64,000 bases of DNA. It comes from a bacterium (GTDB taxonomy: Bacteria; Patescibacteriota; Minisyncoccia; Phycocordibacterales; UBA2100). The translations under genes and the position numbers were made by a program. Shown here one piece after another: positions 1-57,523 of the stretch. Positions within the stretch are counted from its first letter, which is position 1, and every line of letters starts with the position of its first letter. The notes under the pieces were generated by a model. That model made no database searches. It was not told where the DNA came from and saw nothing but the letters and a program-made list of their open reading frames with translations. The stretch lies in contig JAUSGQ010000007.1 of the NCBI GenBank assembly GCA_030674455.1, forward strand, positions 83,947 through 147,946. The letters are read 5' to 3'.

Positions 1-864
1 GGAAATTCTTTGCGCCGCATCGTGCTTTCATCTCTGCCGGGAGCCGCTGTCACGCATGTAAAGATACCGGGCGTAGCGCACGAATTCTCTACTATTGAAG
101 GCGTCAAGGAAGACGTCGTTACAATATTGCTTAATATACGAAAGATACGCCTCAAGCTCGTTACCGACGAGCCTCAAACGATTACGCTTCACGTCAAAGG
201 ACCAAAGGCTGTGACAGCTGCAGACTTGAAGCTCCCAGGCCAAGTTGAAGTTCTGAATCCCGAGAGCCATATCGCAGACATCAGCGGAAAAGTGACATTG
301 GAAGTTGAACTTCGCGCGGAACGCGGCCTCGGCTACATTCCGAAGGAAGTGCATCAGAAAGAGCGCGTTGATGTGGGTACTATCGCATTAGACGCTATTT
401 TCTCTCCGATTCGCCGCGTGAATTACGAAGTCGAGAACATGCGCGTGGGCGACAGAACGGATTTCAACCGTTTGCGAATCCTCATTGAGACGGATGGAAC
501 CATCGCCCCGAGAGAGGCGCTTGAGCGCTCAATAGAGACAATGATCCACCAACTTAAGGCCGTCGTCGGCTTCAGAGAAGAGGATGTCGCTGAGCGCGAT
601 GTCATGGCCTCTGCCGGTATACGGGAATCAAGGCGCGATGAGAAAGCGGCGCCTGACGCAGAAGTCCTCAAGACTCGCATCACCGAATTGAACATGCCGC
701 AGCGAGTAACGGATGCCTTAGATAACGCTTCGATACGGACAGTCGGCGGACTCGTGCGCAAGCGCGAAGACGACCTGCTTTCTATTGAAGGGCTCGGCCA
801 AAAGGGCCTGCAAGACATCAAGCGCGCGCTTTCTAACCTCGGCCTAACACTTCGCTCCCAATAA
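1..864 (+). CDS. rpoA: DNA-directed RNA polymerase alpha subunit, 5-prime truncated at window edge (starts near residue 40 of the E. coli alignment)
   Basis: The translation aligns with RpoA N-terminal, dimerisation and C-terminal domains (LRRIVLSSLPGAAVTHVKIPGV..., alpha-CTD LNMPQRVTDALDNASIRTVGGLV...GLGQKGLQDIK). The reading frame is open from nt 1. Confidence 0.9.
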   Translation, partial: GNSLRRIVLSSLPGAAVTHVKIPGVAHEFSTIEGVKEDVVTILLNIRKIRLKLVTDEPQTITLHVKGPKAVTAADLKLPGQVEVLNPESHIADISGKVTLEVELRAERGLGYIPKEVHQKERVDVGTIALDAIFSPIRRVNYEVENMRVGDRTDFNRLRILIETDGTIAPREALERSIETMIHQLKAVVGFREEDVAERDVMASAGIRESRRDEKAAPDAEVLKTRITELNMPQRVTDALDNASIRTVGGLVRKREDDLLSIEGLGQKGLQDIKRALSNLGLTLRSQ

Positions 865-8205: not shown

Positions 8206-9681
8206 CTAATTCTTGCCAATCAAAGTTTCCGCTCCTCCGCTTATCGTTGTAACGGAACCGGAAAAGAACGGTTTGATGCTATCCGTATCTGTCGTGCCAT
8301 CTTCGGTAAGAAACACTGAATTTCCGGAGACATCTGTGTTGCCTCCCGGCAATGTATAAATTCCATAGCCATAGTTTTGTCCAACGAGATATATGTATGT
8401 AGCATCGTCTATATCAAACTGAATTGTGCGATTCGAGCCGGTAATACCGATGTCGCCCTGAATATACGCGTCTACGGAATTTCCTTTCCGAATGAGAACT
8501 CCCTCGGGAAACGATGCAGTGTAATCCCTGCCATCCGCCTCCGTTTGATATGACTGTTCGTCAACGACTACTTTGACATTCGATATGTCAGAGTTGCTCG
8601 CAGTGCCGCTCTGCCGCCACGTCAGGGAATATAGCCTCAAATCTTCCGTAGAACCCGCGGTAATGCGAATACCGGAAAATCTAACGGCCGTGTCGTTGAC
8701 ATAGCGAGTCATCGCGTTGTTCGGGTCATATTGCGAAAGAACCGCCGAAGCAGTGCCGATTTGAAGCGAAGAGTTTATGCTTTGAGAAGCGCCGCGTATG
8801 GGCAATTGCCCCTCAACGGGAACCGACGCGTCAATCGTCCTCACTTGAAGAATGGCCACTTCTCCAGAATGTTCCGAAAGGTCCCACGCCATATTTCCGT
8901 CGACAGAGAGCGCCAGAGGTTCCCCGACGCGAACTTCGAGCGGTTTTTTGAATTTAAACACTGCCGTGTGGTCAGAACGGATATACGCGTAACTTAATTC
9001 GTTATCATCTCCATCGACAAGAGACAAGTAATCAAACACCTTGTCACTCGACGGTCCTGTTCTTTGAACAGTTATGCTGTTCACTGTTAAATCCGCGCCC
9101 CTGGCGCTAATCTCGAAACTGGTGAATGGTACGTAGTACGCCTGCTGAGGCGCGATTGTGGAAACCGGCTGTTCTGCGGAGGAGACCACAAGAGCGGCAG
9201 ATTCTGTACTTACAGACGAAGAAGACAAGGCCTGCGCAGAGATTGCCGAAGCAACTTGCGTCATCGGCAGGTTAGTCTGACTAACCGCAGGTGCAACACA
9301 AAGCGCATTCAGCTTCGCGCGAGTTCTAATGCCTACAATGCCGGTACCTTTAAACAAACCTGCCGGAGTCAAGATTTCTGAGGCGAATTTCTCCTGAAAT
9401 TTGATTACCGACGTTTTCGTACGCGGACCGAAGACATTTGATTCATTGCCGGGAGAACCCGCGCTAGTTTCTGCAATCCGAGTTTCCGGGCTGGAATTCA
9501 AAAATCTTTGCAATGCCAGAACATCAACGCCAGTAGAACCAACTTTCAAATTTCTCTCCCAAGCGAAAGGGCATGCCGAAGAAGTATCGGCAAAAGCTGT
9601 TGAGGCAAAAAGAAGGAGAAAGACCGGCAAAATGAGCAACCAACGACCGCGACCGACCCGAGCAAGGGCATTAACATACAT
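8206..9681 (-). CDS. secreted protein with peptidoglycan-binding (PG_binding_1) domain
   Basis: A signal/TM segment (WLLILPVFLLLFASTAFA) and a PG_binding_1-like segment (GSTGVDVLALQRFLN...FGPRTKTSVIKFQEKF) are present. The start is set at an internal ATG (MYVNALARV) because the annotated 5-prime 68 codons overlap the next gene region. Confidence 0.6.
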   Translation of the reverse strand: MYVNALARVGRGRWLLILPVFLLLFASTAFADTSSACPFAWERNLKVGSTGVDVLALQRFLNSSPETRIAETSAGSPGNESNVFGPRTKTSVIKFQEKFASEILTPAGLFKGTGIVGIRTRAKLNALCVAPAVSQTNLPMTQVASAISAQALSSSSVSTESAALVVSSAEQPVSTIAPQQAYYVPFTSFEISARGADLTVNSITVQRTGPSSDKVFDYLSLVDGDDNELSYAYIRSDHTAVFKFKKPLEVRVGEPLALSVDGNMAWDLSEHSGEVAILQVRTIDASVPVEGQLPIRGASQSINSSLQIGTASAVLSQYDPNNAMTRYVNDTAVRFSGIRITAGSTEDLRLYSLTWRQSGTASNSDISNVKVVVDEQSYQTEADGRDYTASFPEGVLIRKGNSVDAYIQGDIGITGSNRTIQFDIDDATYIYLVGQNYGYGIYTLPGGNTDVSGNSVFLTEDGTTDTDSIKPFFSGSVTTISGGAETLIGKN

Positions 9682-9780
9682 ACGATTAGTATAATATGCA
9701 TCAAGCATGGCAAGGGTATGTAACGTGATTTCTGTGCATATCCTGTGGTATATTGACTGTGCACAATAGTGCCGTAATTT

Positions 9781-11106
9781 ATGAGATTTAAGGAGGCCAA
9801 AGGAGCCATAAAGAGATCTAGGTCTATAGAGGATATTAGGCAGGCACGCGAAACAATCAAGGGTCTTGACGATGAACATTATCATCTTCCTTTTGAATTC
9901 CCGGTTGCGAGCGAGTTATTAGACGCCTATCTTGCGCGAAAATCATTGCCGTATAATAAACAGCCAAATGCAAGGATTTATCTTTCTGCGGACGGAAAGG
10001 TTAATTACGACGCGTACACGCTTGGAGAAGTACATGACCCAACTTACGTTTTCGGCATTGCCGATGAGAGCAGGCACGCAGAAGTCAATGGGTTACAGAC
10101 ACCTCAATTTAGCGACGTCGTGGCAAGTGCCCCGATTGAGCAACCATCAATTACAAACATAATTCATGTCAAGAATACCGGATTAGTGGTTTTTAAGGCA
10201 TTTCTTAAAAAGTCGCTTAGCACAATGGCAAGAAGCAAGATTCCCCGGGCCAATGCCTTGTATGACGAGAAAAGGGCCGTCAGCGAGAGTGCACAGCTTG
10301 CACTGTTGGGAGATATTTTTAAGAATAGCGCCGATGTTTATGTTCCGCGAGTACTCGGCCACAGTCGTTCCGTAATCGCGATGGAGTATATCCAGGGAGA
10401 GGACATCTCAGAATTGACTTTCAAAAGATTCCTAAATAAACACGATTTTCTTGCAATTGCTGATGTACTTGCAACGATACACATTGAATTTGCTAGAAAT
10501 GCCGAGAAAATCAAGGGTAAATTCAATATTCCTGAAAGTCACACCGCGAATAGCGTCGTAAGTTTCGAAAAGAGAACGAGTCAGTTTCATCACGAGCATC
10601 GGGATAACGGCTTGAAACAAGAGTTATTTGATAGATTTACATCGTTAATTGAACGCGGGCGTCAAGTCATTGCTGATAATCACGAGGCATACCATGATTA
10701 TCGGGATTTGATTTACGGTGACTTTAAGGATGAAAATCTGATTAAAATGCCAGATGGCAGAATAGCACTGATTGACCCGACTATTTGTGCTGGCAGAAAT
10801 AGTATGGACATAGCAAAATTTGCGCGAAGTATTCTTTTCAAGGACCCAACGACTTACACTAAACACTTCCATGATTTCTTGAGAAGGTATCAGGAGCAGA
10901 CCGATACTGTCGTTAATGAGAGAGAGGTCGCAAATATGCTGGGTATTGACATGCTCAACATCATGCGAAGCTATTTTCTGATACCCGAAAAGCAGGTACT
11001 GGTATTTCCACCTACGGTTCGTAATGTCCGACAACATGCAAAATATTACCTTGATTTTATTGACAATGTGTTTGCAAGCAATCTACAGCTCGAGCTTGCG
11101 CATTAA
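9781..11106 (+). CDS. protein-kinase-like fold phosphotransferase (APH/RIO/Kdo-kinase-like)
   Basis: A hinge-like VIAMEYIQGEDI, the catalytic loop LIYGDFKDENLI (HGDxxxxN-like, with D and N conserved) and the metal-binding RIALIDPT (DFG-equivalent) are present. The first ~180 aa have no recognisable family. The gene is AT-rich relative to its neighbours. Confidence 0.5.
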   Translation: MRFKEAKGAIKRSRSIEDIRQARETIKGLDDEHYHLPFEFPVASELLDAYLARKSLPYNKQPNARIYLSADGKVNYDAYTLGEVHDPTYVFGIADESRHAEVNGLQTPQFSDVVASAPIEQPSITNIIHVKNTGLVVFKAFLKKSLSTMARSKIPRANALYDEKRAVSESAQLALLGDIFKNSADVYVPRVLGHSRSVIAMEYIQGEDISELTFKRFLNKHDFLAIADVLATIHIEFARNAEKIKGKFNIPESHTANSVVSFEKRTSQFHHEHRDNGLKQELFDRFTSLIERGRQVIADNHEAYHDYRDLIYGDFKDENLIKMPDGRIALIDPTICAGRNSMDIAKFARSILFKDPTTYTKHFHDFLRRYQEQTDTVVNEREVANMLGIDMLNIMRSYFLIPEKQVLVFPPTVRNVRQHAKYYLDFIDNVFASNLQLELAH

Positions 11107-11114
11107 TCATACAT

Positions 11115-12545
11115 ATGAAATTGGGGACGTATAAGCTTTCCAATAAAGACTTCTTGCGAAGCTATGGCCCTGAGGATATAGAGAATCTCGATACGTCAAG
11201 CAGATACGATTGTGATGTGCTAGTTTGGAATAACAGATATGATTTTTGCTCGGAAATGCTAGTGAGTTTCCCACGTCTAAAATTATTCATAAATTGGGGA
11301 ACTGATGACGCTAACTTGCCTGATTTAGACATGTTGGCGAAGAGGGTTATGGTCAAGAAAGTTGATTTTTACGCACAACAAAGCCTGTGTGAATATGTTC
11401 TTATGTTGATGGTTGCGTTTGAGCACGCTCAAGAGAAAATCTTTCATGATGATGCAGACAATTTCACTATGCAGATTTATGGCAAAAAGATAGGAATTAT
11501 CGGCTTAGGCAAGATCGGTTTTAACGTGGCAAGCTTTCTTCACAAATCCTTCAATTGCATTATCTATTACAACACTACTAAAGATTACCGTATCCCAGAT
11601 TACCAATACGCGTCTAAGGATGACTTGATAAGAGTCTGCGATTACGTAATTATTGTGGCGAAGTCAAGAACGTGTTCTGTTGACCCAAAAGTCATGGAAC
11701 ACGCAAACCCAGATCTTGTTATTCTTAACATCTCGCGGGACAGCATATTGCCCTTCAAGATAATATGTCCATATCTGCAGAGTGGAAAAATTAGAGGGTT
11801 CATAGGCGATGTTACAAAACTAAACCCAGGCGATGGAGTTGCCAAGAATATCCTTATCTCTCCTCGAATTGGCTATCAAACAAAAGAGGCCGTAGAGTTA
11901 AAGCAAAACATCTTATTGTTCTATTTGAAACAATATATGTTTTGTGAGGCCAATAAGAAATCGTATGTTCATATTGCCCGGCATGGTAAGACAGAATGGA
12001 ACTCTTTAAGAATCTACCAAGGCACATATGATTCGCCGCTAACGCACAATGGCAAAGAGGATGCTGAGAAAATTGCTGAATCTCTTGCAGATAAAAAAAT
12101 CGTTCACGTCTTTACAAGTCCTCTCGGTAGGGCTAAAAGAACCGCGGAAATAATTGTCGATAAACTTAATGTACCAATATCAACAATCCCTTCTTTTATT
12201 GAGATGAATTTTGGCATCTTTCAACAAAAACCTCAAGAGCAAATCAAGGAATTGTTTGATGATTTCTTCACAAATCGAAATAATAATGCGCACTACAAGT
12301 TGTTTGTGCCATATCCATCTGGTGAAAGTTATTTTGACGTATATCAACGAATTCTATTTGACATTATGAGGATATTGGTTACGTATGATAATTTTGCAAT
12401 CGTCGGGCACGAAAGTGTTAACAGGATGATAAGGGGAATAATAACCGGCAAGAATCTAACAGAAATGGTTAACGCTAGACAAAAGAATAATGAACTCATT
12501 GCAATAGAATTATCGGAAAATATTGAAAGTGTGATTGTCGTTTGA
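11115..12545 (+). CDS. fusion protein: D-isomer 2-hydroxyacid dehydrogenase-like NAD-binding domain (catalytic Glu/His apparently substituted) plus histidine phosphatase (phosphoglycerate-mutase-like) domain
   Basis: The N-terminal half has a Rossmann GKKIGIIGLGKIGFNVA and an ILNISRDSIL...GKIRGFIGDV core, but the expected EP/PH catalytic residues read NP/PR. The C-terminal half has the RHG motif (HIARHGKTEWN), SPLGRAKRTAEII and a second His (VGHESVNRMIRG) typical of His_Phos_1. Confidence 0.6.
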   Translation: MKLGTYKLSNKDFLRSYGPEDIENLDTSSRYDCDVLVWNNRYDFCSEMLVSFPRLKLFINWGTDDANLPDLDMLAKRVMVKKVDFYAQQSLCEYVLMLMVAFEHAQEKIFHDDADNFTMQIYGKKIGIIGLGKIGFNVASFLHKSFNCIIYYNTTKDYRIPDYQYASKDDLIRVCDYVIIVAKSRTCSVDPKVMEHANPDLVILNISRDSILPFKIICPYLQSGKIRGFIGDVTKLNPGDGVAKNILISPRIGYQTKEAVELKQNILLFYLKQYMFCEANKKSYVHIARHGKTEWNSLRIYQGTYDSPLTHNGKEDAEKIAESLADKKIVHVFTSPLGRAKRTAEIIVDKLNVPISTIPSFIEMNFGIFQQKPQEQIKELFDDFFTNRNNNAHYKLFVPYPSGESYFDVYQRILFDIMRILVTYDNFAIVGHESVNRMIRGIITGKNLTEMVNARQKNNELIAIELSENIESVIVV

Positions 12546-24969: not shown

Positions 24970-27900
24970 ATGTATGCCACTATTCGATTATTACCATGCC
25001 TAAAAGCGAGCCTCCTTTTCATGCTTAGAAAATTCACCTTCGGAGGCATTGGCTTAGCTCTTCTCATAACTCCTTTATTTGCTAGTGCTGATACGACAAG
25101 CGATGCGACTGAATTATCGCGCTGGGAGGCGGTAGTAACTTGTCTAAAAATCAAAGTTGACAACCATGATTACGTTAATGCACTTTCTTGTTTAGGAGCT
25201 GGAACAGCCGCGAACACATTATTTTCTCCGTCTGTGAGTTCTCTCAAAGCTGGCGCGCTTGCCGCCGTAGCAACGACATTCACACAGTCGTCCGGCTCAA
25301 ACAGCGCCGAGCCGGCAACAGATGCGGAAAAGGAGGCGGAGATGCTTACCGATCTCCTTAGCTCCAAAATTGCGCCGGAACCGGTAACGAGGTCAAAAGT
25401 CGGCGCGTTCGCTTCAGAATCTGAGAAAGTAAAACAGCAGGTACAAGTCGCGAAGCATCGCGGACAGCTTATGAAACAGTTGGCTGAAGATAACCCCGAG
25501 GCCTTTCTTCGCAATGTTATGCCGGAGTCTCAGCGCTCCAAATTCTCAACCGAGGTTAAGAACGAAATTGAGCAAAAAGTGGCACTAACGGGGAAAGTGG
25601 AGGTCGTACACCTTGATGATTTCACAAACCATGAAAACTCAAAGTTTAATTATTTTCTTCAATCGGGAGGTTCCAGAATCTCGCTTAAGGTCGCAGGGAA
25701 CACGCCAGCAATGTTATCCGGCTCTTCAGTGCGCGCGAATGGATATAAACTCGGTCAAACTCTTGTTGTGGCTGCAAATTCAAATTCAGATGGGGATTCA
25801 GGCGGAGGAGGAGGTTTGACGGTACTTTCGCGGCCAGCTCTTGAATCTGCCAGAACGCAAAGAACTCTGGTAATTCTTGTAACTAGTCCTGGGCAGGCAA
25901 GTACGCCGACAAAAGAAGAAATGAGAAACCTTATATTCTCCGGAAATATTAATAGATATTACGAGGAGCAATCATACGGAAACGTACGATTTGAAGGAGA
26001 CGTGACTGATTGGATATCAGTGCCTGCTTCTTCATATCCTGTGTATGGGCCTATCGAACTCGACCAGTCGGATATAAGTAGCTATATTTCACGAAATCAC
26101 ATAGACTTGTCGCTCTATGATCGAGTCATGACCGTTGTAAACGGCTGGGCCGGTGGTTATGCATGGGCCGGCAAGGTGGACAGGTTAATCAACGGTGTAA
26201 CCTATCGCCTTTCCATAGGTTCGACGGGCTGGTCGGTTTCAGGATGGGCAGTAGAGAACATGTCCGGCTTTGAAAATGTATTCTCGCACGAAATGGGGCA
26301 CGAGCTTGGAGTCATGCATGCTAATTCACGGGAATGTAGCGGTCCATCTCTGGATAGAGATTGTCGTCACAATGAATATGGCAATGCCTTCGACATTATG
26401 GGATATGGAAATAATGCGGAGCATTTCAATGCATATTACAAAGATTCTCTAGGATGGCTTGATAATTCCTCGAAGGTTTCCATTACTCAAAGCGGAAGAT
26501 ATTCACTCTCGCCAATCGAGGCGCGGACAGGCGTGCGAGCTGGCATTATCACCAACCCTGCTACTCCTTCCGCGCTACCCTTGTATCTCGAATTTAGGCA
26601 ACCGATGGGATATGACAGTATATTGCCGCCCAACTCGGCAGGCCTGCAGTTAAATCAAGTTGTTACAAGAGGTCCATATGATTGGCTTCCATTTCCATGG
26701 CTCATTAACGCGAATTACGCGACCGATCCTCCATGTAATCCAGGTTTCCCATGTTTTTCACAGCCGTCGCTTATGCAGGGTAGCAATTTCTCATGGGCTG
26801 GTCGTGGCATCAGCATAGGTTCACTCGTTACAACACCAACATTGGCAACTTTTGATGTCGGGCTTACACAGCCATTGTGCGAACGAAACGGTTTATATGA
26901 TAGTAATAACAATCCATACTGGCAACAGCGTGTGGCTGCCGGCTCAAGCGCAACACTGCAAATTAATTTGACGAACGGCAACACTATCGCATGCGGTCCG
27001 AGTACAGTAGAATTTTCGACCTCTGTGACGAATTCGAGCGGATGGTCTATCTCGCAATATCCGAACGAGAGTAACGAAAGAGTTGTTATTGCGCCCGGCG
27101 AGACTGAGCGTGTGTATGTATCCCTTTCTCTGCCAGAAGATGCAGCACCGGGCAATAGAACTGTACGTATCACGGTGTCTGATTTGACCAACGGTCGTTC
27201 ATACAATATTGAGAGGACAATTACGGTCACGGCGAGACCAACGATAACCGAAATCTTTCCTTCAAGCGGAAGAGCGGCGACTGCCGTGACATTAAAAGGT
27301 ACGGGGTTCAATGAGTACCCAGGAAACACTATAAATATCAATGGAGGAAATCTCTCTGCCACTATTAGAAATGTTATTGCTAGAGCCGGAACTCTAACCT
27401 TCACCTTTCCTACAACCTTTGAGAGTTACGGCGGAGGAAGCGAGCCGCGACCTTCACAAGTTCCACCGCCATTGGGTCAGTACTCAATTGCTGTTTCTCG
27501 AAATGATGACGGCGGAACCGCAAGCGCAACGTTCACAGTAACGTCGGGTAATTCAGCTTTTCCCACCATCACATCAATTAATCCTTCGAGTACAACAGGA
27601 AGACCAACAAACTTTACGATTATTGGGACAAACTTCCAGTCTGGGTCAATGATTTACTACACCTATGCTGGCACTGGCAGTATTCCTTCTGGCACTTTTA
27701 CGCCGACGTTCAACCCCTCTAGACCTGATAGATTGACGTTCACTACGGCATCATTGCCTAAAGGAATCTACACTTTTTATGTTAAGAATCCTGACGGTCA
27801 AATTTCAGACACCGAGAATGTGACGGTTTTCTGTTACGACTTCAGAAGTATTCCATTGCAGGAGGGAAGTCAGGGAGCTGATGTTATTGCTCTCAAGCAG

Positions 27901-30711
27901 GCATTGCGTCTGGCTTTGAATAATTCATACGGCGAATCCGGTCGAGAGCCTCAGGATTATTATGGCACTGAAACTGTCGCTAACGTTAAGACATTCCAAT
28001 CAATACATCGTATTGAGCAGACTGGCATTGTTGAAGTTCAAACCTCAGCAAAATTGAACGATATCTTTGGATGCCAGCAGACAACCCCCACCTCTGACCC
28101 CATTATCTCTTCATTCACCCCCGAGTCGGTTGTGGCCGGAGCAACAACAAACATAGTAGTTAAAGGCCGCAACTTCCAGTTGGGAGCGGTTCTTGTCTAC
28201 ACTCTCGGTTCTGATACAGGCGAGTTGCCAACGACTTTTACGCCTGCGCCGATTCCGGGGCAAGAACAAAAATTGACCACCGGACGATATACCATTGACG
28301 CAGTAGGAAGTTATACCTTCCACGTCAAAAATCCCGACGGAAGAAGAAGCGAGGAAAAGATATTTGTTGTTACTCCGCGTGGGCAAGGAACTCAAACAAA
28401 CACTACTGCCGATAGTCCGCTGGCGTCCGCTCCCCAAATCCAATTTACCGTGAATGGTTCTGCGTATAGCGGTTCTAGATACGATGTATCTTTTGGAAGC
28501 ACAGTAAATATCGGGTGGAAGGTCACCAATCCATCCGGCGCAATATGTTCCGCCGCAGGAAACGGCATTGGAGATAATTTAGGTTCCGGCTCTATGCAAG
28601 CCAGCAATTCGTGGACAAACTGGACAACGCCGCCTCTTTACACCAGCACCACATACGGCATCAAATGCACCAACTCTCGAGGAACTACATACAAATACGT
28701 GTATGTGACGGTTGCGCCGCAGACAAACACATCGGGGGGCCCCGGTATCAGCATCACTGTTGACCCTGTTGACGCCAATACTAGCAACACATCTTACAGT
28801 GAAAGTTCTCCGCGAGTCAGCGTTGGGTTTGGAAAGAAGGTCAATATCGGTTGGGGCGTCACCAACGCCGGGGGCAGTACTTCGGGCATTACATGCTACG
28901 CAGCCGGAACAGGGCTAGGCGGAAGAAATGGTTATGAGAGCACTCCTTTAAGCGGCCTATGGACTACGCCGGCACTCTATACCGACACTACCTATGGAAT
29001 ACAATGCAAGAACTCGGCAGGCGCAATCACAAACAGATACATCTCTATTGATGTCGGCGAGCAGGCGAACACCGCCACTGCAATCACCCCGCCCGCCATC
29101 ACCATTAACGGTGATAGTAGTAACAATCAGCAACTTACATATTCCCCAGAAGTTGCATTTGGCGGCACTGCCAATATCAACTGGAGCGTTTCTCCGACGA
29201 GCGGCACCACTTGCTCCGCCGCAGGCAACGGCGTCTGGGGCAACACCGGTTCCGGTTCCGCAGAGTTAAGCGGCTCGTTCGCTACGCCGCCCCTCTACAC
29301 CAAAACCACGTACGGCATCAGATGCACTAACTCCGCCGGTACTACGTACAAGTACATAACCATCGGCATTCAAGAACAACAAAACACCACCACCACCGCC
29401 AGCACTCCCGCGCCAACTATCACCATTACGCCGCCTAGCGCGTCAATCGACTTTGGCGATAGCGCCACCTTCGGCTGGGATGTGACGCCACAAACTGCCG
29501 ATACCAAGTGCTATGCCGCGGGAACTGGTCTGGGCGGGGCAGAGGGATACCAAGAGATAGGCCTAACCGGAAGAAATTGGGTTACGCCGGCGCTCTACAC
29601 TTACACTACGTATGGAATAAAGTGTACAAACCCGGGCGGCACGACATACAAGTACGTGAACGTTTCTGTCGCCCCACAGCAGAGTACGACTTGCACCGAA
29701 GTCCCACAAACTCCGCTACCATGCGCCGACTATGCCGGTTCGTACGGAGTTCCTGCAGGATACACAGTCGGCAACGGCTCGTGGACAAAGAACAGCTGCA
29801 CCGGCAATCCAACCTACACTGGCGGGTGTTCGGCTCCCGCTCCAACCACACAGTCCTGCACCGAAGTTCCACAAACCCCACTGCCATGCGCCGACTACGC
29901 CGGCTCATACGGAGTCCCATCCGGATACACAGTCGGCAACGGTTCATGGACGAAAAATAGCTGCACAGGCAATCCAACTTATACCGGCGGCTGTTCTGCG
30001 CCAGCTCCAACGCAATCTTGCACCGAGGTCGCTCAAACTCCTCTACCGTGCGCCGACTACGCCGGCTCATACGGAGTCCCATCCGGATACACAGTCGGCA
30101 ACGGTTCATGGACGAAAAATAGCTGCACAGGCAATCCCACATACACGGGTGGTTGCTCCGCTCCCTCTGTCCCGACAGTCCGGCTCTCACAAAATTCGAG
30201 CAGTGGTACATCGGTCACTGTCACCTGGAGTTCCGACAATGCCGATTCATGCCGCCTTCAATACAATCTAAACGGAGGAGCCTGGACTGATTGGACATCG
30301 GGCGGTTCAAGCGGTTCAGTGAGCGGAGATTTGACTTCAGGAACGTGGAAAGCCAGAGCCATATGCACCGGCCCGGGCGGTACGACGACGAGTAGCACGA
30401 TAACCCACACTGTGGCAATCAGTTCTTCGCCCTTGAGCCAGACGGCGAGCGCCGCTGGCGCATTTCCAGAAGGAGAGGATGCGTTTATCTACACATGGAA
30501 CAATGACCTTCAGCTTAACTCGCGGTACGCGGCAGACATCAAGGCATTGCAGACTGCACTCGCGAAAGAAGGGGTGTACATCGGAGAAGTAACTGGAGGA
30601 TTCCACATGCAAACGTATTACGGGGTTAAAAGATTCCAAGAGAAGTACGGAATTGACTCCACCGGCTTTGTCGGCCCGCAAACGAGGGCAAGACTCAACG
30701 AGCTGTACTGA
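24970..30711 (+). CDS. giant secreted multidomain protein: metzincin-type zinc metallopeptidase domain, Ig-like/repeat domains, two peptidoglycan-binding domains
   Basis: A signal peptide is present (start possibly at MLRKFTFGGIGLALLITPLFASA, 25021). HEMGHELGVMH equals the HExxHxxGxxH metzincin motif. There are 4-5 ~95-aa repeats ending ...YGIKCTNSxGTTYKYVxV, and 3 tandem ~55-aa Cys repeats (CTEVPQTPLPCADYAGSYGVP...). PG_binding_1-like segments are present internally and at the C-terminus (YAADIKALQTALAKEGVY...GVKRFQEKYGIDSTGFVGPQTRARL). Confidence 0.7.
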   Translation: MYATIRLLPCLKASLLFMLRKFTFGGIGLALLITPLFASADTTSDATELSRWEAVVTCLKIKVDNHDYVNALSCLGAGTAANTLFSPSVSSLKAGALAAVATTFTQSSGSNSAEPATDAEKEAEMLTDLLSSKIAPEPVTRSKVGAFASESEKVKQQVQVAKHRGQLMKQLAEDNPEAFLRNVMPESQRSKFSTEVKNEIEQKVALTGKVEVVHLDDFTNHENSKFNYFLQSGGSRISLKVAGNTPAMLSGSSVRANGYKLGQTLVVAANSNSDGDSGGGGGLTVLSRPALESARTQRTLVILVTSPGQASTPTKEEMRNLIFSGNINRYYEEQSYGNVRFEGDVTDWISVPASSYPVYGPIELDQSDISSYISRNHIDLSLYDRVMTVVNGWAGGYAWAGKVDRLINGVTYRLSIGSTGWSVSGWAVENMSGFENVFSHEMGHELGVMHANSRECSGPSLDRDCRHNEYGNAFDIMGYGNNAEHFNAYYKDSLGWLDNSSKVSITQSGRYSLSPIEARTGVRAGIITNPATPSALPLYLEFRQPMGYDSILPPNSAGLQLNQVVTRGPYDWLPFPWLINANYATDPPCNPGFPCFSQPSLMQGSNFSWAGRGISIGSLVTTPTLATFDVGLTQPLCERNGLYDSNNNPYWQQRVAAGSSATLQINLTNGNTIACGPSTVEFSTSVTNSSGWSISQYPNESNERVVIAPGETERVYVSLSLPEDAAPGNRTVRITVSDLTNGRSYNIERTITVTARPTITEIFPSSGRAATAVTLKGTGFNEYPGNTININGGNLSATIRNVIARAGTLTFTFPTTFESYGGGSEPRPSQVPPPLGQYSIAVSRNDDGGTASATFTVTSGNSAFPTITSINPSSTTGRPTNFTIIGTNFQSGSMIYYTYAGTGSIPSGTFTPTFNPSRPDRLTFTTASLPKGIYTFYVKNPDGQISDTENVTVFCYDFRSIPLQEGSQGADVIALKQALRLALNNSYGESGREPQDYYGTETVANVKTFQSIHRIEQTGIVEVQTSAKLNDIFGCQQTTPTSDPIISSFTPESVVAGATTNIVVKGRNFQLGAVLVYTLGSDTGELPTTFTPAPIPGQEQKLTTGRYTIDAVGSYTFHVKNPDGRRSEEKIFVVTPRGQGTQTNTTADSPLASAPQIQFTVNGSAYSGSRYDVSFGSTVNIGWKVTNPSGAICSAAGNGIGDNLGSGSMQASNSWTNWTTPPLYTSTTYGIKCTNSRGTTYKYVYVTVAPQTNTSGGPGISITVDPVDANTSNTSYSESSPRVSVGFGKKVNIGWGVTNAGGSTSGITCYAAGTGLGGRNGYESTPLSGLWTTPALYTDTTYGIQCKNSAGAITNRYISIDVGEQANTATAITPPAITINGDSSNNQQLTYSPEVAFGGTANINWSVSPTSGTTCSAAGNGVWGNTGSGSAELSGSFATPPLYTKTTYGIRCTNSAGTTYKYITIGIQEQQNTTTTASTPAPTITITPPSASIDFGDSATFGWDVTPQTADTKCYAAGTGLGGAEGYQEIGLTGRNWVTPALYTYTTYGIKCTNPGGTTYKYVNVSVAPQQSTTCTEVPQTPLPCADYAGSYGVPAGYTVGNGSWTKNSCTGNPTYTGGCSAPAPTTQSCTEVPQTPLPCADYAGSYGVPSGYTVGNGSWTKNSCTGNPTYTGGCSAPAPTQSCTEVAQTPLPCADYAGSYGVPSGYTVGNGSWTKNSCTGNPTYTGGCSAPSVPTVRLSQNSSSGTSVTVTWSSDNADSCRLQYNLNGGAWTDWTSGGSSGSVSGDLTSGTWKARAICTGPGGTTTSSTITHTVAISSSPLSQTASAAGAFPEGEDAFIYTWNNDLQLNSRYAADIKALQTALAKEGVYIGEVTGGFHMQTYYGVKRFQEKYGIDSTGFVGPQTRARLNELY
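29692..30180 (+). repeat. three tandem in-frame coding repeats (165/162/162 nt), copies 2 and 3 near-identical at DNA level
   Basis: An ~86-nt stretch (29889-29974 versus 30051-30136) is identical between copies 2 and 3. Copy 1 starts at 29692. Confidence 0.8.
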
Positions 30712-30753
30712 CCTCTATTCAAGGTTCCACCTTGAATAGAGGTTTCAAGTTTT
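30712..30753 (+). terminator. Rho-independent terminator after the giant gene
   Basis: A 13-bp perfect stem CCTCTATTCAAGG / CCTTGAATAGAGG with loop TTCCA, then TTTCAAGTTTT, begins the nucleotide after the stop codon. Confidence 0.6.
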
Positions 30754-30876
30754 GACAATCGAAGCCCCCGAGGAAACACCTTCCATGGTCAAGGAGTTAC
30801 CTCGAAGACAAATTAGACATCCGATGTCTAATTTGCTTGGTTTGGCGGGAAAGAATGGAGGACGTACAATAGGGCA

Positions 30877-54436: not shown

Positions 54437-57400
54437 TCACTCCCCTTCCAAAACAAAATTTACAAGTCGGCTGGGTACATAAATCGTGCGTAATATCTTC
54501 TTGCCCTCCACGCGCGAGCCAACTGCCGCGAGCGCCGCATCTTCAACAGTCTTTTTATCCGAATCAGTCGGCACTTGAACTTCTCCGCGTGTTCTGCCGT
54601 TTATCTGAATTGCGATAGTAACATTCTCGTCTCTCAGCAAAGCAGGATCAAACACCGGCCACTTTTCAAGATGAATCGATGATTTATTTCCGGCTTCATG
54701 CCACAACTCTTCTGTTATATGCGGAGCGAACGGTGATAAAAGCTTCAGAAATACTCCAAATTGTTCCTGGCCGATTGCGCCTTCTTTTTCTATCGCATTC
54801 AAAAGTATCATCAAAGAGCTGATAGCCGTATTGAATTTGAGCAGAGCTATATCTTCTCCAATTTTTTTAACAGTCCTGTGCAACACCGGTTCTATGTTCG
54901 CATTTACTGTCAACTGTGGACTGTCAACTGTAGACTGTCCCATCCGCCACACTCGTTCAAGAAATCTGCGGATTCCTACGACGCCGTCCGGATTCCACGG
55001 GTAGCTTGAAACCTCGTTGTAAGGGCCGATGAACGCAAGATACATGCGCACCGTGTCGGCTCCCAAGCGCTCCACTACCAGGTCGGGGTCAATGACATTC
55101 CCGCGCGACTTGCTCATCTTCTGCCCGTCGGGCCCCAGTATCAAACTCCTGTTCATTCGCCGCTTGTATGGTTCCGATTCCCCCACCAGCCCCAAGTCAA
55201 ATAGCGCTTTGTGCCAGAAGCGCGAATAGAGAAGGTGCATGGTCGTATGTTCCGCTCCTCCCGAATAAAGATTTACGGGCATCCAATTCGCTTGCTTCTC
55301 TTTGCTAGCGAATTCCTTCTTGTTGTTGGGGTCTGTGTAGCGCAGGAAATACCATGACGAATCGACGAACGTATCCAGCGTGTCTGTCTCGCGCTCCGCC
55401 TCGCCTGCGCACTTTGGGCACTTTGCGGCAACCCATTTCTTCGCCTTGGCGAGCGGCGACTTCCCGCTCCCTTCGGGTAGATAATCTTTGACCTCGGGCA
55501 GCTCCACGGGCAAGTCCACGTCTCCGACCGGCTGTGAGCCGCACTTTCCGCAATGGATAATCGGTATTGGCACTCCCCAATATCTCTGCCTCGATACTAT
55601 CCAATCGCGAAGCTTGTAAGTGGTTTTCTTAACGCCCAATTCTTCCGTAATGGCTTCCCTTCCTTTCTGCGATGTCAGGCCACTGAACCTGCCGGAATCT
55701 ATCATCAGCCCTTCTCCCATGTAGGGAAGTTCGCCGCCGTTTTTGTCCGCGTTGTTCCGCGTTTGGGCCGATAGGGTTTGTATCGGCACCTGTAGACGGT
55801 CTGCGTTAATCTGCGCCGATATGACTTCCCTTATGGGAAGACCATATCGGGATGCAAACTCAAAGTCGCGCTCGTCGTGCGCCGGCACTGCCATAATCGC
55901 ACCCGTGCCGTAATGGCCGAGTACGTAATCGGCAATATAAACAGGAATCCTTTCCCGTGTCGCGGGATTGATTGCATCCACACCCTCGAGCCTCACTCCT
56001 GTTTTTTCTTTATTCGTCTGGCGGTCCATATCTGATTTCTTTTCAGTTAGGGCGATATATCGCCCTATTTCCTTCTCATTGCGGAGAAGCCGCTGATGCG
56101 CGAGGGCGCGTTTGACCCAAGGATGTTCAGGTGCAAGCACGACGTACGTTGCACCAAAGAGCGTGTCTGGGCGGGTCGTAAAGACAGTAATGCGCGGCAT
56201 AAGCTGTGCTAATACGAGCGGCTCTTGCGCGCCCAGGAAATGCTCCTCATTGGCTTTTCCTTCTGCTATCTGCGCATCAAGAATGTCGGCTAGGTGTGCA
56301 ATGTACGCCCCGCGCTTGCCTTTTTCCGCCGCATCAGAAAGTACGAGTCTTAAACCGGCAAGCGTCTTGAGTTTGTCGTACTTGATATCCCACGAAAAGT
56401 CTTTCCAATACGTTCTCGGTTCCGCATTCGCAAATGCCGAATCTATTGCCGGAGCTACGAGAACCAACCCGCCTACCGGACGATTTATTTTTTGCAGCAA
56501 TTTCATCGCCACAACTGCTCCCAGGCTATGGCCGATGATGACGGTGTTCTCATCTATGTGGCAGTGGTCGAACACGTATTTGACTTGCTCGTATTCCTTC
56601 GGCTCGCTCGTATTTGGAAGTTCAGGTGCTTGGACGGCATACCCCTTGCTCTCGAGCTCTCGCTTGAGCCACGAAAAAAATGCGCCGGTAGGGCTTCCTT
56701 TGTAGCCGTGCAGAAGCAAAAAATTCGGCTGCGGAGCATTTTTATTCTCAAATTCAATCGGAAAACTTATTTCGGCCCCATTGCTGCGCCCTATCCAATT
56801 CCTTTGCGACTCCTTGATTTGCTCCGGCCAATCTAAGCCGGATAGATCGTCTATCAATCTATCCGCGTAATCCGTTATCTTGATATTCCACTGGAGCATC
56901 TTCTTCTGCACCACTTCGCTGTCACAGCGTTCGCATTTACCGTCCGTAACTTGTTCATTGGCAAGAACCGTTTTGTCTTTTGGACACCAATTAACCGCAG
57001 TCTCTTTTTGATACGCCAACCCTTTCTTAAAAAGCTGCAGGAACAACCATTGCGTCCATTTGTAATAATCAGGGTTGCACGTGATTACTTCGCGCGACCA
57101 GTCAAACGATGTCCCCATAGAGGCAATTTGCTTTTTCATATATGCAATATTCCCTTCCGTCCACGTGCGCGGATTGAGCTTGTTCTTTATTGCCGCATTT
57201 TCCGCAGGCAGGCCGAAGGCGTCAAAACCAATCGGATACATCACGTTCTTGCCTTGCATGCGAAGCGCGCGCGCTAAAATATCCGGCACGGCAAATGCGT
57301 ACCAATGCCCGGCGTGAAGATTTCCGGAAGGATACGGGAATTCTACGAGCAGGTAGAAGTTCTCTTTCTTGCCCGCCGTAGCTTTACTGTGTCCGTCCGT

Positions 57401-57523
57401 AGCCTTGAGCGAAGGAGGAGCGGAGGCGGGACCGGGCGCCTTGTCCGGCGTTGTGTAAATCTTGCTTGTCTTCCAATATTTCTGCCACTTGCGCTCAATG
57501 GCCTTATGGTCGTATTTCTTCAT
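54437..57523 (-). CDS. leuS: leucine--tRNA ligase with an inserted alpha/beta-hydrolase (Ser_hydrolase/YdeN-RBBP9-like) domain preceding the CP1 editing domain
   Basis: LeuRS motifs are FPYPSGNLHAGH (HIGH), NWIGRS, TTRPDTLFGATY plus GTGAIMAVPAHDERDFEFA (CP1 editing), and KMSKS. Between NWIGRSNGAEISFPIEF and ITVFTTRPDT lies a ~195-aa insert with LLLHGYKGSP (oxyanion HG), GHSLG (nucleophile elbow), and candidate Asp (LVLSDAAE) and His (AYIAHL) residues. Confidence 0.85.
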   Translation of the reverse strand: MKKYDHKAIERKWQKYWKTSKIYTTPDKAPGPASAPPSLKATDGHSKATAGKKENFYLLVEFPYPSGNLHAGHWYAFAVPDILARALRMQGKNVMYPIGFDAFGLPAENAAIKNKLNPRTWTEGNIAYMKKQIASMGTSFDWSREVITCNPDYYKWTQWLFLQLFKKGLAYQKETAVNWCPKDKTVLANEQVTDGKCERCDSEVVQKKMLQWNIKITDYADRLIDDLSGLDWPEQIKESQRNWIGRSNGAEISFPIEFENKNAPQPNFLLLHGYKGSPTGAFFSWLKRELESKGYAVQAPELPNTSEPKEYEQVKYVFDHCHIDENTVIIGHSLGAVVAMKLLQKINRPVGGLVLVAPAIDSAFANAEPRTYWKDFSWDIKYDKLKTLAGLRLVLSDAAEKGKRGAYIAHLADILDAQIAEGKANEEHFLGAQEPLVLAQLMPRITVFTTRPDTLFGATYVVLAPEHPWVKRALAHQRLLRNEKEIGRYIALTEKKSDMDRQTNKEKTGVRLEGVDAINPATRERIPVYIADYVLGHYGTGAIMAVPAHDERDFEFASRYGLPIREVISAQINADRLQVPIQTLSAQTRNNADKNGGELPYMGEGLMIDSGRFSGLTSQKGREAITEELGVKKTTYKLRDWIVSRQRYWGVPIPIIHCGKCGSQPVGDVDLPVELPEVKDYLPEGSGKSPLAKAKKWVAAKCPKCAGEAERETDTLDTFVDSSWYFLRYTDPNNKKEFASKEKQANWMPVNLYSGGAEHTTMHLLYSRFWHKALFDLGLVGESEPYKRRMNRSLILGPDGQKMSKSRGNVIDPDLVVERLGADTVRMYLAFIGPYNEVSSYPWNPDGVVGIRRFLERVWRMGQSTVDSPQLTVNANIEPVLHRTVKKIGEDIALLKFNTAISSLMILLNAIEKEGAIGQEQFGVFLKLLSPFAPHITEELWHEAGNKSSIHLEKWPVFDPALLRDENVTIAIQINGRTRGEVQVPTDSDKKTVEDAALAAVGSRVEGKKILRTIYVPSRLVNFVLEGE

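Follow-up and report, generated by a model that had tools for sequence, protein, structure and literature searches.

A predicted wall-tethered metzincin-type protease with tandem four-cysteine modules in a Patescibacteria genome

What is the function of a protein of about 1,900 amino acids (aa) that is deposited as a peptidoglycan-binding protein, and whose gene stands among the cell-wall genes of a bacterium in the candidate phyla radiation (CPR, Patescibacteria)? A large part of bacterial diversity belongs to this group, and little is known of how its members feed on their partners or hold on to them; to our knowledge, all cultivated ones live on other cells. The open reading frame (ORF) that raises this question lies in a 64,000-nucleotide (nt) stretch of contig JAUSGQ010000007.1 (assembly GCA_030674455.1, positions 83,947 to 147,946 of the forward strand), which is referred to below as the window and in which all positions are numbered. 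Its product is 100% identical to the 1896-aa protein MDO8552194.1, entitled in NCBI "MAG: peptidoglycan-binding protein [bacterium]", where MAG stands for metagenome-assembled genome. Taken together, the results of our analysis make it moderately probable that this protein is a Sec-exported, non-covalently wall-tethered multidomain zinc endopeptidase of an ultrasmall, probably Paceibacteria-type bacterium, which came into being through the fusion of two pre-existing units. The first of them, a head (aa ~150-860), comprises an N-terminal helical/beta-sandwich domain and catalytic, CARDB/NEW3-like immunoglobulin-like (Ig-like) and TIG domains. The second, a body (aa ~860-1913), represents a peptidoglycan-binding surface protein of the type known from Paceibacteria, with TIG domains, an internal PG_binding_1 domain, four repeats of ~100 aa, three modules of four cysteines each and, at the end, a domain that may be Fn3-like and a second PG_binding_1 domain.

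Head, body and their relatives

The catalytic domain of the head contains an intact metzincin-type zinc motif, HEMGHELGVMH. Its residues H440, E441, G443, H444, G447 and H450 are invariant in two alignments of the family, of 60 and of 48 members, and so are C456, C465, E469, Y470, G471, D475, M477 and G478, which follow the motif. Residue M477, which is located 27 residues past the third histidine (H450) in a region modelled with low confidence, is a natural candidate for the methionine of the Met-turn. The matches of this domain to curated models are partial or fall short of the cutoffs. In the case of Pfam Reprolysin_4 (24.6 bits vs. cutoff of 22) the match covers aa 411-484 and only profile positions 120-180 of 203, and in the case of Peptidase_M6 (PF05547; 24.0 vs. 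22) it covers aa 327-381 and only 54 of 294 profile positions. Reprolysin (PF01421) scored below its cutoff (12.1 vs. 20.8), and TIGR03296 was aligned to aa 318-554 over nearly its full model length with 46 bits, the cutoff being 110.8. A sequence search of PDB with a profile of six relatives returned mostly metzincins, namely myroilysin, adamalysins, ADAMTS-5, ADAM-8, matrix metalloproteinases, karilysin and InhA, all of them as weak matches, with myroilysin as the strongest one (E 0.002).

The structural model of the HExxH region is compatible with a metallopeptidase. In the AlphaFold2 (AF2) model of aa 150-760, which was built from a 6-sequence alignment and reached a mean confidence score (pLDDT) of 72, the order of elements, b1-aA-b2-b3-b4-b5-aB(HExxH)-aC, is that of metzincins, and HExxH lies within a helix. 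A Foldseek comparison of this model with PDB indicated a weak similarity to the catalytic domain of ADAM-8 (E 1.6e-4, 221 columns, target-normalised TM-score of 0.47). Structural support for the metallopeptidase fold is only moderate; together with the sequence evidence, it supports the assignment of the head as a metzincin-type zinc protease. The family-conserved domain that precedes the catalytic one was modelled as helices (model residues 2-48) followed by strands (model residues 53-156). For this domain (aa 150-295), to which no Pfam match was found, the role of a pro-domain or one in substrate binding is conceivable. The beta-rich region that follows the catalytic domain belongs to the conserved family core, and its Foldseek matches include CARDB and FixG-related domains.

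A profile search with the head identified 12,686 cluster representatives at E<1e-3, of which 2,809 remain at E<1e-30. The majority are 700-1300 aa long, and their matches span the entire core of ~600 positions, the profile coverage reaching about position 600 in most family members. The first whole-protein homology search had given only seven matches, and the resulting notion of a rare family was overturned by the profile search. In the collection of species-representative genomes, relatives were found at 302 loci. Among the 80 of these loci that were listed, most are from Patescibacteria (Taylor-, Nomura- and Vogelbacteria, Paceibacteria), and more distant relatives come from Myxococcota, Verrucomicrobiota and other groups. 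When 48 members were scanned, 12-13 of them matched each of Reprolysin_3, Reprolysin_4 and Reprolysin_5, three matched M11, three M10 and one M6, while PG_binding_1 was present in five. No dedicated curated model captures this family, and the known ones (Reprolysin_4, Peptidase_M6, TIGR03296) touch it marginally. We conclude that the head is part of a very large metzincin family, which is experimentally uncharacterised and shows up most clearly in the genomes of CPR bacteria.

Similarity to other proteases of the family ends at aa 859-874, close to the end of the first TIG domain, as indicated by BLASTP comparisons with proteins P0003 and P0004. One of these two relatives of the protease core, P0003 (1899 aa, ENA), carries a PG_binding_1 domain at either end, together with a DUF4214 domain and with repeats reminiscent of thrombospondin type-1 repeats (WTF..C...CGT.ASTQTAVC.GGNG.C.GSATTR.C). 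It represents an independent fusion of the protease core with wall-binding domains.

The two PG_binding_1 (PF01471) domains of the body jointly reach 74.8 bits (cutoff 23). The four tandem two-cysteine repeats of ~100 aa follow the consensus FGGTA..W.V.P..G..C.AAG.G...W.TP.LYT.TTYGI.C.N..G.TYKY and were recovered by a hidden Markov model of the repeat with independent E-values (i-E) of 1e-36 to 1e-40. At the DNA level, they correspond to units of ~300-340 nt located at 28.4-29.7 kb, which are 62-81% identical according to Tandem Repeats Finder and a repeat finder. These repeats have no match in Pfam and no sequence relative in PDB. A fifth copy, suspected at aa 1737-1830, was not supported (i-E 0.34) and was rejected; this segment is homologous to the C-terminal region of protein P0002. 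Among other proteins, the body resembles peptidoglycan-binding surface proteins, some of which are labelled Patescibacteria or Kaiserbacteria (P0155, P0157, P0160-P0167) and which have the same ~100-aa repeat, the same type of TIG domain and a C-terminal PG_binding_1.

The closest relative of the body is the paralogue P0002 (MDO8552382.1, 2466 aa), encoded on a different contig and probably derived from the same MAG submission, since its accession number is only 188 away from MDO8552194.1. Both proteins have the same type of signal peptide and a two-cysteine leader (51% identity over aa 18-80), two ~100-aa repeats of P0002 are colinear with those of the ORF (65% identity), and the last 133 residues, with the possibly Fn3-like domain and PG_binding_1, are 72% identical. 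In contrast, P0002 has neither the protease core nor four-cysteine modules of the kind found in the ORF, and contains instead six near-identical TIG-like units and a different four-cysteine repeat (ACGSASG...YTWTCSG...LGC). As the ends are shared and the protease is absent from P0002, this genome probably encodes two or more giant proteins that agree in their ends and differ in the payload between them. Read-through fusion of a protease gene with its downstream neighbour was considered as well and rejected: the proteins encoded downstream of the relatives at loci L081 and L003 share with the body only generic PG_binding_1 or Ig-like similarity.

Translation likely starts at M18 (nt 25021), which gives a protein of 1896 aa, in agreement with the length of the NCBI entry and with the N-terminus of P0002. 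From this methionine, the sequence reads MLRKFTFGGIGLALLITPLFASA followed by DTT, a canonical Sec signal peptide whose three parts (n, h and c regions) and AxA cleavage site were recognised by eye. It contains no lipobox cysteine. The N-terminus of P0002, MLRKLAFGGLGFALLITPLLASA, is nearly the same, and the homologues have equivalent N-termini. At the other end of the protein, the stop codon is located four residues past the last PG_binding_1 domain, and neither a sortase motif nor a membrane anchor is present there. The GC content of third codon positions (GC3) is ~0.42 over aa 1-1200 and ~0.57 over aa 1201-1913 (within 24970-30708), the values for neighbour genes being 0.50-0.62. This step hints weakly at separate histories of head and body; it may reflect a mosaic origin or just the amino-acid composition.

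A preliminary description of this DNA, made from its letters, had already pointed to a signal peptide, a metzincin HExxHxxGxxH site, Ig-like/IPT-like segments and two PG_binding_1-like domains. All of them were recovered here, the Ig-like part as three TIG domains (the third just under the cutoff) and a NEW3/CARDB-like domain. Of the four to five repeats of ~95 aa listed there, four have been retained and the fifth has not.

The four-cysteine modules

Between the ~100-aa repeats and the C-terminal part of the body there are three tandem modules of the pattern C-x9-C-x24-C-x9-C, which are 46 residues long when both outer cysteines are counted. In 28 aligned copies from various proteins this stretch contains no gaps, and 19 of its positions are invariant. 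In the DNA, the three units occupy 29.68-30.17 kb with periods of 165 and 162 nt (Tandem Repeats Finder, repeat finder), which agrees with the three cysteine-containing repeats of the preliminary description. AF2 models them as three small beta-rich beads with a pLDDT of 87.9. The module has no match in Pfam, no sequence match in PDB even at E 10, and no counterpart of similar fold in PDB (best E 0.096) or BFVD. A profile search with the alignment of the 46-aa module returned nothing, there being seven word-index candidates, and the scan of viral contigs did not reveal any copy. In the metagenome collection the module is rare (8 loci).

Other tandem arrays of this module, of 5-8 copies, are located at the extreme C-terminus of three proteins (P0152-P0154, one of them labelled Bdellovibrio sp.) and of P0156. 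Identity to the module of the ORF is 53-58% in P0152-P0154 and 53-61% when P0156 is included, and the 46 residues are aligned without gaps between the outer cysteines, with 19 positions invariant across 26 copies. The N-terminal parts of these four proteins are, however, unrelated to the ORF and consist of Tyr/Cys-rich repeats with a weak match to CBM_14; the proteins contain neither a protease nor PG_binding_1. Single copies of the module are present in a few unrelated secreted proteins, some of which come from groundwater metagenomes, and in none of the other proteins found does the module occur together with the ~100-aa repeat. In two contigs from Hainich groundwater (L086/L087), a secreted protein with a single four-cysteine module continues with several repeats of the form CSSARYSCSSG...YQWWCNGSNGG..LC, a second cysteine motif, similar to the four-cysteine repeat peculiar to P0002. 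This suggests a common pool of small cysteine modules in groundwater bacteria.

The preliminary description had noted that copies 2 and 3 are identical over ~86 nt and had taken this as a sign of recent expansion or ongoing slippage. While the identity itself was confirmed (86 of 86 nt at 29889-29974 vs. 30051-30136) and the exact run was found to be slightly longer, 89 nt, the pattern of substitutions speaks against the proposed origin. The three copies are 95% identical as proteins. Over 51 codons, copies 1 and 2 differ synonymously at 22 and non-synonymously at two codons, copies 1 and 3 at 21 and four, and copies 2 and 3 at 17 and two, all of the latter outside the identical tract. Of the 66 nt that flank this tract within copies 2 and 3, 20 differ, nearly always synonymously, with saturated dS (synonymous divergence), and the chance of an 89-nt identical run at the background divergence is ~8e-7. 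Nei-Gojobori estimates for copy 1 vs. copies 2 and 3 are 0.018-0.036 for dN (non-synonymous divergence) and 1.1-1.2 for dS, which gives a dN/dS of ~0.02-0.03. A dS this high with so small a dN indicates that the copies are old and that their peptide is very strongly constrained. As the divergence outside the tract is mostly synonymous, the identical 89 nt are best read as a patch of short local gene conversion and not as a trace of recent whole-unit duplication. The array at locus L083, which matches P0154, appears to be under a milder form of the same regime (dN 0.05-0.2, dS 0.5-3.6).

At least three copies must exist, since all three left and all three right flanks of the units are distinct. 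Additional copies beyond the assembled three may be present, given the exact 89-nt repeat at an in-frame period. The 46-aa module is a so far undescribed, confidently predicted disulfide-type domain under unusually strong purifying selection.

Genomic position and possible functions

The ORF is located in a row of genes of the same strand, downstream of the genes of TrpRS/TyrRS, AspRS, ScpA, ScpB and the Peptidase_S11 DD-carboxypeptidase and upstream of those of MraY, FtsW, MurG, GluRS and an M23 peptidase. Its adjacency to cell-wall genes is real, yet it is not conserved. In the closest genome found, at locus L003 (MraY 70% and TrpRS 71% identical), the S11 gene directly precedes mraY, and a relative of the protease is encoded ~6 kb upstream of the S11/mraY block. 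A Taylorbacteria genome (L013) likewise has its S11 gene directly before mraY, and the protease relative is encoded there just past ftsW. Since in both these genomes S11 is directly followed by mraY, the giant gene represents a lineage-specific insertion and not a conserved element of this gene order.

The spacer between the stop codon of the ORF and mraY (30712-30876) allows the insertion point to be placed more closely. A perfect hairpin directly past the stop codon was not called by the consensus terminator scan. The core of a second, terminator-like hairpin, GACATCC[G/A]ATGTC, recurs in the hairpin that L013 has between S11 and mraY (CGACTTGGACATCCAATGTCCAAGTCG); this second hairpin is unique in the window, on which ground its origin from a dispersed repeat was rejected. 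The last bases before mraY, ACGTACAATAGGGCA, with the -10-like TACAAT, are kept between the window and L003. These kept spacer elements, together with the ORF's own hairpin, indicate that the 5.7-kb gene was inserted between the stop codon of S11 and the ancestral spacer elements, so that the L013-shared hairpin core and the L003-shared start region mark the insertion point. With its own hairpin past the stop codon and with the promoter region of mraY retained, the giant gene may form an independent transcription unit.

In the interpretation that we favour, the protein would be exported via Sec, its two PG_binding_1 domains would hold the C-terminal part in the producer's own peptidoglycan, and the ~1,000-residue chain of small beta domains would act as a stalk that displays the protease head outside the wall. 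There, the head would cleave extracellular proteins or surface proteins of a partner cell. The CPR group is generally predicted to depend on others, given its extensive biosynthetic deficits, and such cleavage would supply peptides to an organism with this dependence. Several observations weigh against this interpretation. The signal peptide was assigned by eye, from sequence only. The TIGR03296 score of the catalytic domain is far under the cutoff of the model, the confidence of the AF2 model collapses exactly at the third histidine and the methionine (model residues 299-337, pLDDT 31-46), and ADAM-8 is the sole metallopeptidase among the Foldseek matches, at rank 26, after Ig-like ones. The location of the internal PG_binding_1 domain between the head and the stalk does not fit a simple layout in which anchor and enzyme occupy opposite ends. 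Moreover, the PG_binding_1 domains could bind the wall of a host instead of the producer's own wall. A different function would be that of a weapon or adhesin of an episymbiont rather than of a nutrient-scavenging enzyme kept on its own wall: PG_binding_1 and the four-cysteine modules would attach to a host or prey cell's envelope, and the metzincin head would open or process the surface of that cell. Such a host-attack or attachment factor seems unlikely, although several findings point in its direction. Host attachment has been proposed as the role of peptidoglycan-binding proteins of Paceibacteria (Kuroda et al., PMC10936435), four-cysteine arrays also occur in P0156 and in the three proteins of which one is labelled Bdellovibrio sp., and the low dN/dS of the module is as expected of a specific ligand-binding surface. 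It is rather improbable, in a more specific version, that the module is a cell-surface recognition domain common to Bdellovibrio-like proteins and episymbiotic CPR, and that the protein is a tethered attack enzyme. If this were true, the modules and PG_binding_1 would dock on the host or prey envelope, the head would breach it, and the near-identity of the module peptides despite saturated dS would result from selection for multivalent contacts with a repetitive ligand. The rarity of the module counts against an attack or attachment function, and its single copies in unrelated secreted proteins would also fit a generic structural or binding role. Methanogenic archaea are understood to be without murein, and as hosts they would give PG_binding_1 nothing to bind. 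It is in methanogenic archaea that hosts of Paceibacteria have been reported (Kuroda et al., PMC10936435).

The remaining explanations concern the producer's own envelope or the assembly. The position of the gene between Peptidase_S11 and mraY, with ftsW, murG and the M23 gene downstream on the same strand, the two PG_binding_1 domains and the occurrence of protease relatives no more than a few kb away from this cluster in two related genomes would suit an endopeptidase that remodels the cell's own peptidoglycan in growth and division, together with the DD-carboxypeptidase, MraY, FtsW, MurG and M23. We find this role quite unlikely in view of the lineage-specific insertion described above, of the small share of family members that have PG_binding_1, and of the catalytic matches, which are all to protein-degrading metzincins and none to wall hydrolases of the M15, M23 or NlpC type. 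Housekeeping wall endopeptidases are, besides, unlike a stalked architecture of 1,900 aa. The protein might also be mainly structural, S-layer-like or a fibril component made of Ig-like repeats, with a head serving only for self-processing or for maturation of envelope proteins, as ~55% of it (aa ~860-1913) is a non-catalytic body of small and of wall-binding domains, a paralogue that shares this body lacks the protease, and such proteins are among the most highly expressed ones in Paceibacteria (PMC10936435). However, the protease core of ~600 aa is a complete family unit that in most relatives occurs without this body, and there is no indication of a self-cleavage site; a mainly structural role appears very unlikely. 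Even less can be said for an artefact of assembly, namely a protease gene falsely joined to one for a peptidoglycan-binding protein and/or a wrong number of cysteine modules assembled from short reads, which we consider hardly probable at all. The sequence is indeed metagenome-assembled, GC3 changes at aa ~1200, the C-terminal parts are common to the paralogue, and the 89-nt exact repeat with its 162-nt period, a multiple of three, could be miscounted without breaking the frame. Yet the frame is unbroken over 5.7 kb, the end of the protease homology (aa ~860) does not coincide with the GC3 step, independent assemblies also join the protease core to PG_binding_1 (P0003 and the five of 48 members), and the distinct flanks of the cysteine units require at least three copies.

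Coordinates of the features discussed are given in Table 1. Some other genes of the window were noted as well. In the leucyl-tRNA synthetase LeuRS (1028 aa, 54437-57523, minus strand), residues ~266-473 form an alpha/beta-hydrolase segment (Pfam Ser_hydrolase 1.9e-10, Abhydrolase_6), placed between its N-terminal catalytic part (aa 48-244) and its editing domain (aa 442-629); a hydrolase insertion is unusual for an aminoacyl-tRNA synthetase. A single ORF at 11115-12545 (plus strand) combines the NAD-binding domain of a D-2-hydroxyacid dehydrogenase (aa 106-238) with a histidine-phosphatase domain (PGAM-like, aa 286-469). Two ORFs of 559 and 441 aa, at 8206-9885 (minus strand) and 9781-11106 (plus strand), have no Pfam match at E<=1e-5, and their ends overlap by ~100 nt on opposite strands. 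Scans of the window for tRNA genes and Rfam families were empty.

Table 1. Features of the giant ORF and of the spacer that follows it; positions are those of the window
Feature	Residues (aa)	Positions (strand)	Basis or remark
Whole ORF		24970..30711 (+)	1913 codons open from the first ATG, stop codon included; ORF list
Sec-type signal peptide MLRKFTFGGIGLALLITPLFASA	18-40	25021..25089 (+)	putative cleavage before DTT; by-eye reading
Poorly conserved leader	41-149	25090..25416 (+)	two-Cys helical stretch (C58, C74), present in P0002 too
N-terminal domain, family-conserved	150-295	25417..25854 (+)	helices, then beta-sandwich; alignment, AF2
Metzincin-type catalytic domain	about 296-600	25855..26769 (+)	profile, PDB and Foldseek matches
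Zinc motif HEMGHELGVMH	440-450	26287..26319 (+)	HExGHxxGxxH
Candidate Met-turn methionine	M477 (M460 in P0001 numbering)	26398..26400 (+)	within EYGNAFDIMG
Beta-rich region	601-745	26770..27204 (+)	part of the conserved family core
NEW3/CARDB-like Ig domain	657-737		Pfam NPCBM_assoc, 28.3 bits vs. 24.4
TIG/IPT domain 1	757-856	27238..27537 (+)	Pfam TIG, 27.3 bits
TIG/IPT domain 2	865-950	27562..27819 (+)	Pfam TIG, 22.9 bits; internal repeat of aa 1044-1130
PG_binding_1 domain 1	968-1029	27871..28056 (+)	Pfam, 40.3 bits vs. 23
TIG-like domain 3	1044-1130	28099..28359 (+)	Pfam TIG, 19.7 vs. cutoff 20.9; ~40% identical to TIG domain 2
Four tandem ~100-aa two-Cys repeats	1157-1254, 1270-1368, 1375-1473, 1482-1573	28438..29688 (+)	
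Three tandem 46-aa four-Cys modules	1574-1619, 1629-1674, 1683-1728	29689..30153 (+)	short linkers between
Identical tract of 89 nt		29887-29975 (+) in copy 2 = 30049-30137 in copy 3	exact match
Two-Cys domain, possibly Fn3/Ig-like	1737-1830	30178..30459 (+)	weak Pfam Pur_ac_phosph_N match, E 0.005
PG_binding_1 domain 2	1855-1909	30532..30696 (+)	Pfam; SleB peptidoglycan-binding domain 6tci, E 7e-6
Perfect hairpin CCTCTATTCAAGG-TTCCA-CCTTGAATAGAGG, then TTTCAAGTTTT		30712..30745 (+)	directly past the stop codon; sequence reading
Second hairpin CAAATTAGACATC-CGA-TGTCTAATTTG		30809..30835 (+)	terminator-like call
Promoter-like site TTGGCG-17-TACAAT and mraY start region		30842..30876 (+)	

Comparison with known proteases and surface proteins

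The kind of each part of the protein, namely a metzincin, Ig-like repeats and PG_binding_1, is already known, and the protein itself has been deposited. What is new is the recognition of the catalytic head, which the NCBI name "peptidoglycan-binding protein" hides, the fusion of this head with a body that is shared with a paralogue, and the undescribed four-cysteine module. The protein joins, in an unusual fusion, parts each of which also occurs in other proteins. Among the secreted protease cores seen in CPR genomes, one of the commonest turns out to be a metzincin family that has no dedicated curated model and of which we know no studied member, and this core can be fused to the body of a peptidoglycan-binding surface protein of the kind highly expressed by Paceibacteria. 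While these results do not overturn current ideas, they offer concrete constructs for testing the surface functions of CPR bacteria.

Among characterised proteases, InhA/thuringilysin (MEROPS M6; PDB 4yu5) is likewise a secreted multidomain metzincin of bacteria. The N-terminal part of the catalytic domain of the ORF, with the FYEEQSYG region, matches Peptidase_M6 and the 4yu5 chain, and one of the relatives has been named "M6 family metalloprotease-like protein" by the Joint Genome Institute (JGI). The third zinc ligand of thuringilysins is, however, Asp (PMC12237041), whereas in the ORF and in all aligned relatives it is His. The accessory domains also differ from those of InhA, and a match to Peptidase_M6 is limited to one of the 48 members scanned. 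With M12B proteases (Reprolysin_3/4/5; ADAM-8, 4dd8; myroilysin, 5gwd) the ORF shares the HExxHxxGxxH region, and these proteases provide its best sequence matches in PDB and the sole metallopeptidase match by fold. The matches are confined to the active-site helix and its surroundings. Unlike ADAMs, the ORF has no disintegrin or Cys-rich domains, and in our own comparison the FDxMG sequence around its conserved methionine is unlike the Met-turn of adamalysin. The family does not fit the definition of either M6 or M12B.

In the case of the body, the closest described counterparts are the extracellular proteins with peptidoglycan-binding, Ig-like and PKD domains that are highly expressed by Paceibacteria and for which a role in host attachment was proposed (Kuroda et al. 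2024, PMC10936435). They come from the same broad lineage and follow the same plan as the body of the ORF, i.e., a signal peptide, Ig-like repeats and PG_binding_1, a likeness in the described domain plan. While in Paceibacteria peptidase-like proteins (signal-peptide peptidases) were reported separately from proteins with peptidoglycan-binding domains (PMC10936435), in the ORF described here a peptidase and peptidoglycan-binding domains are fused in a single protein.

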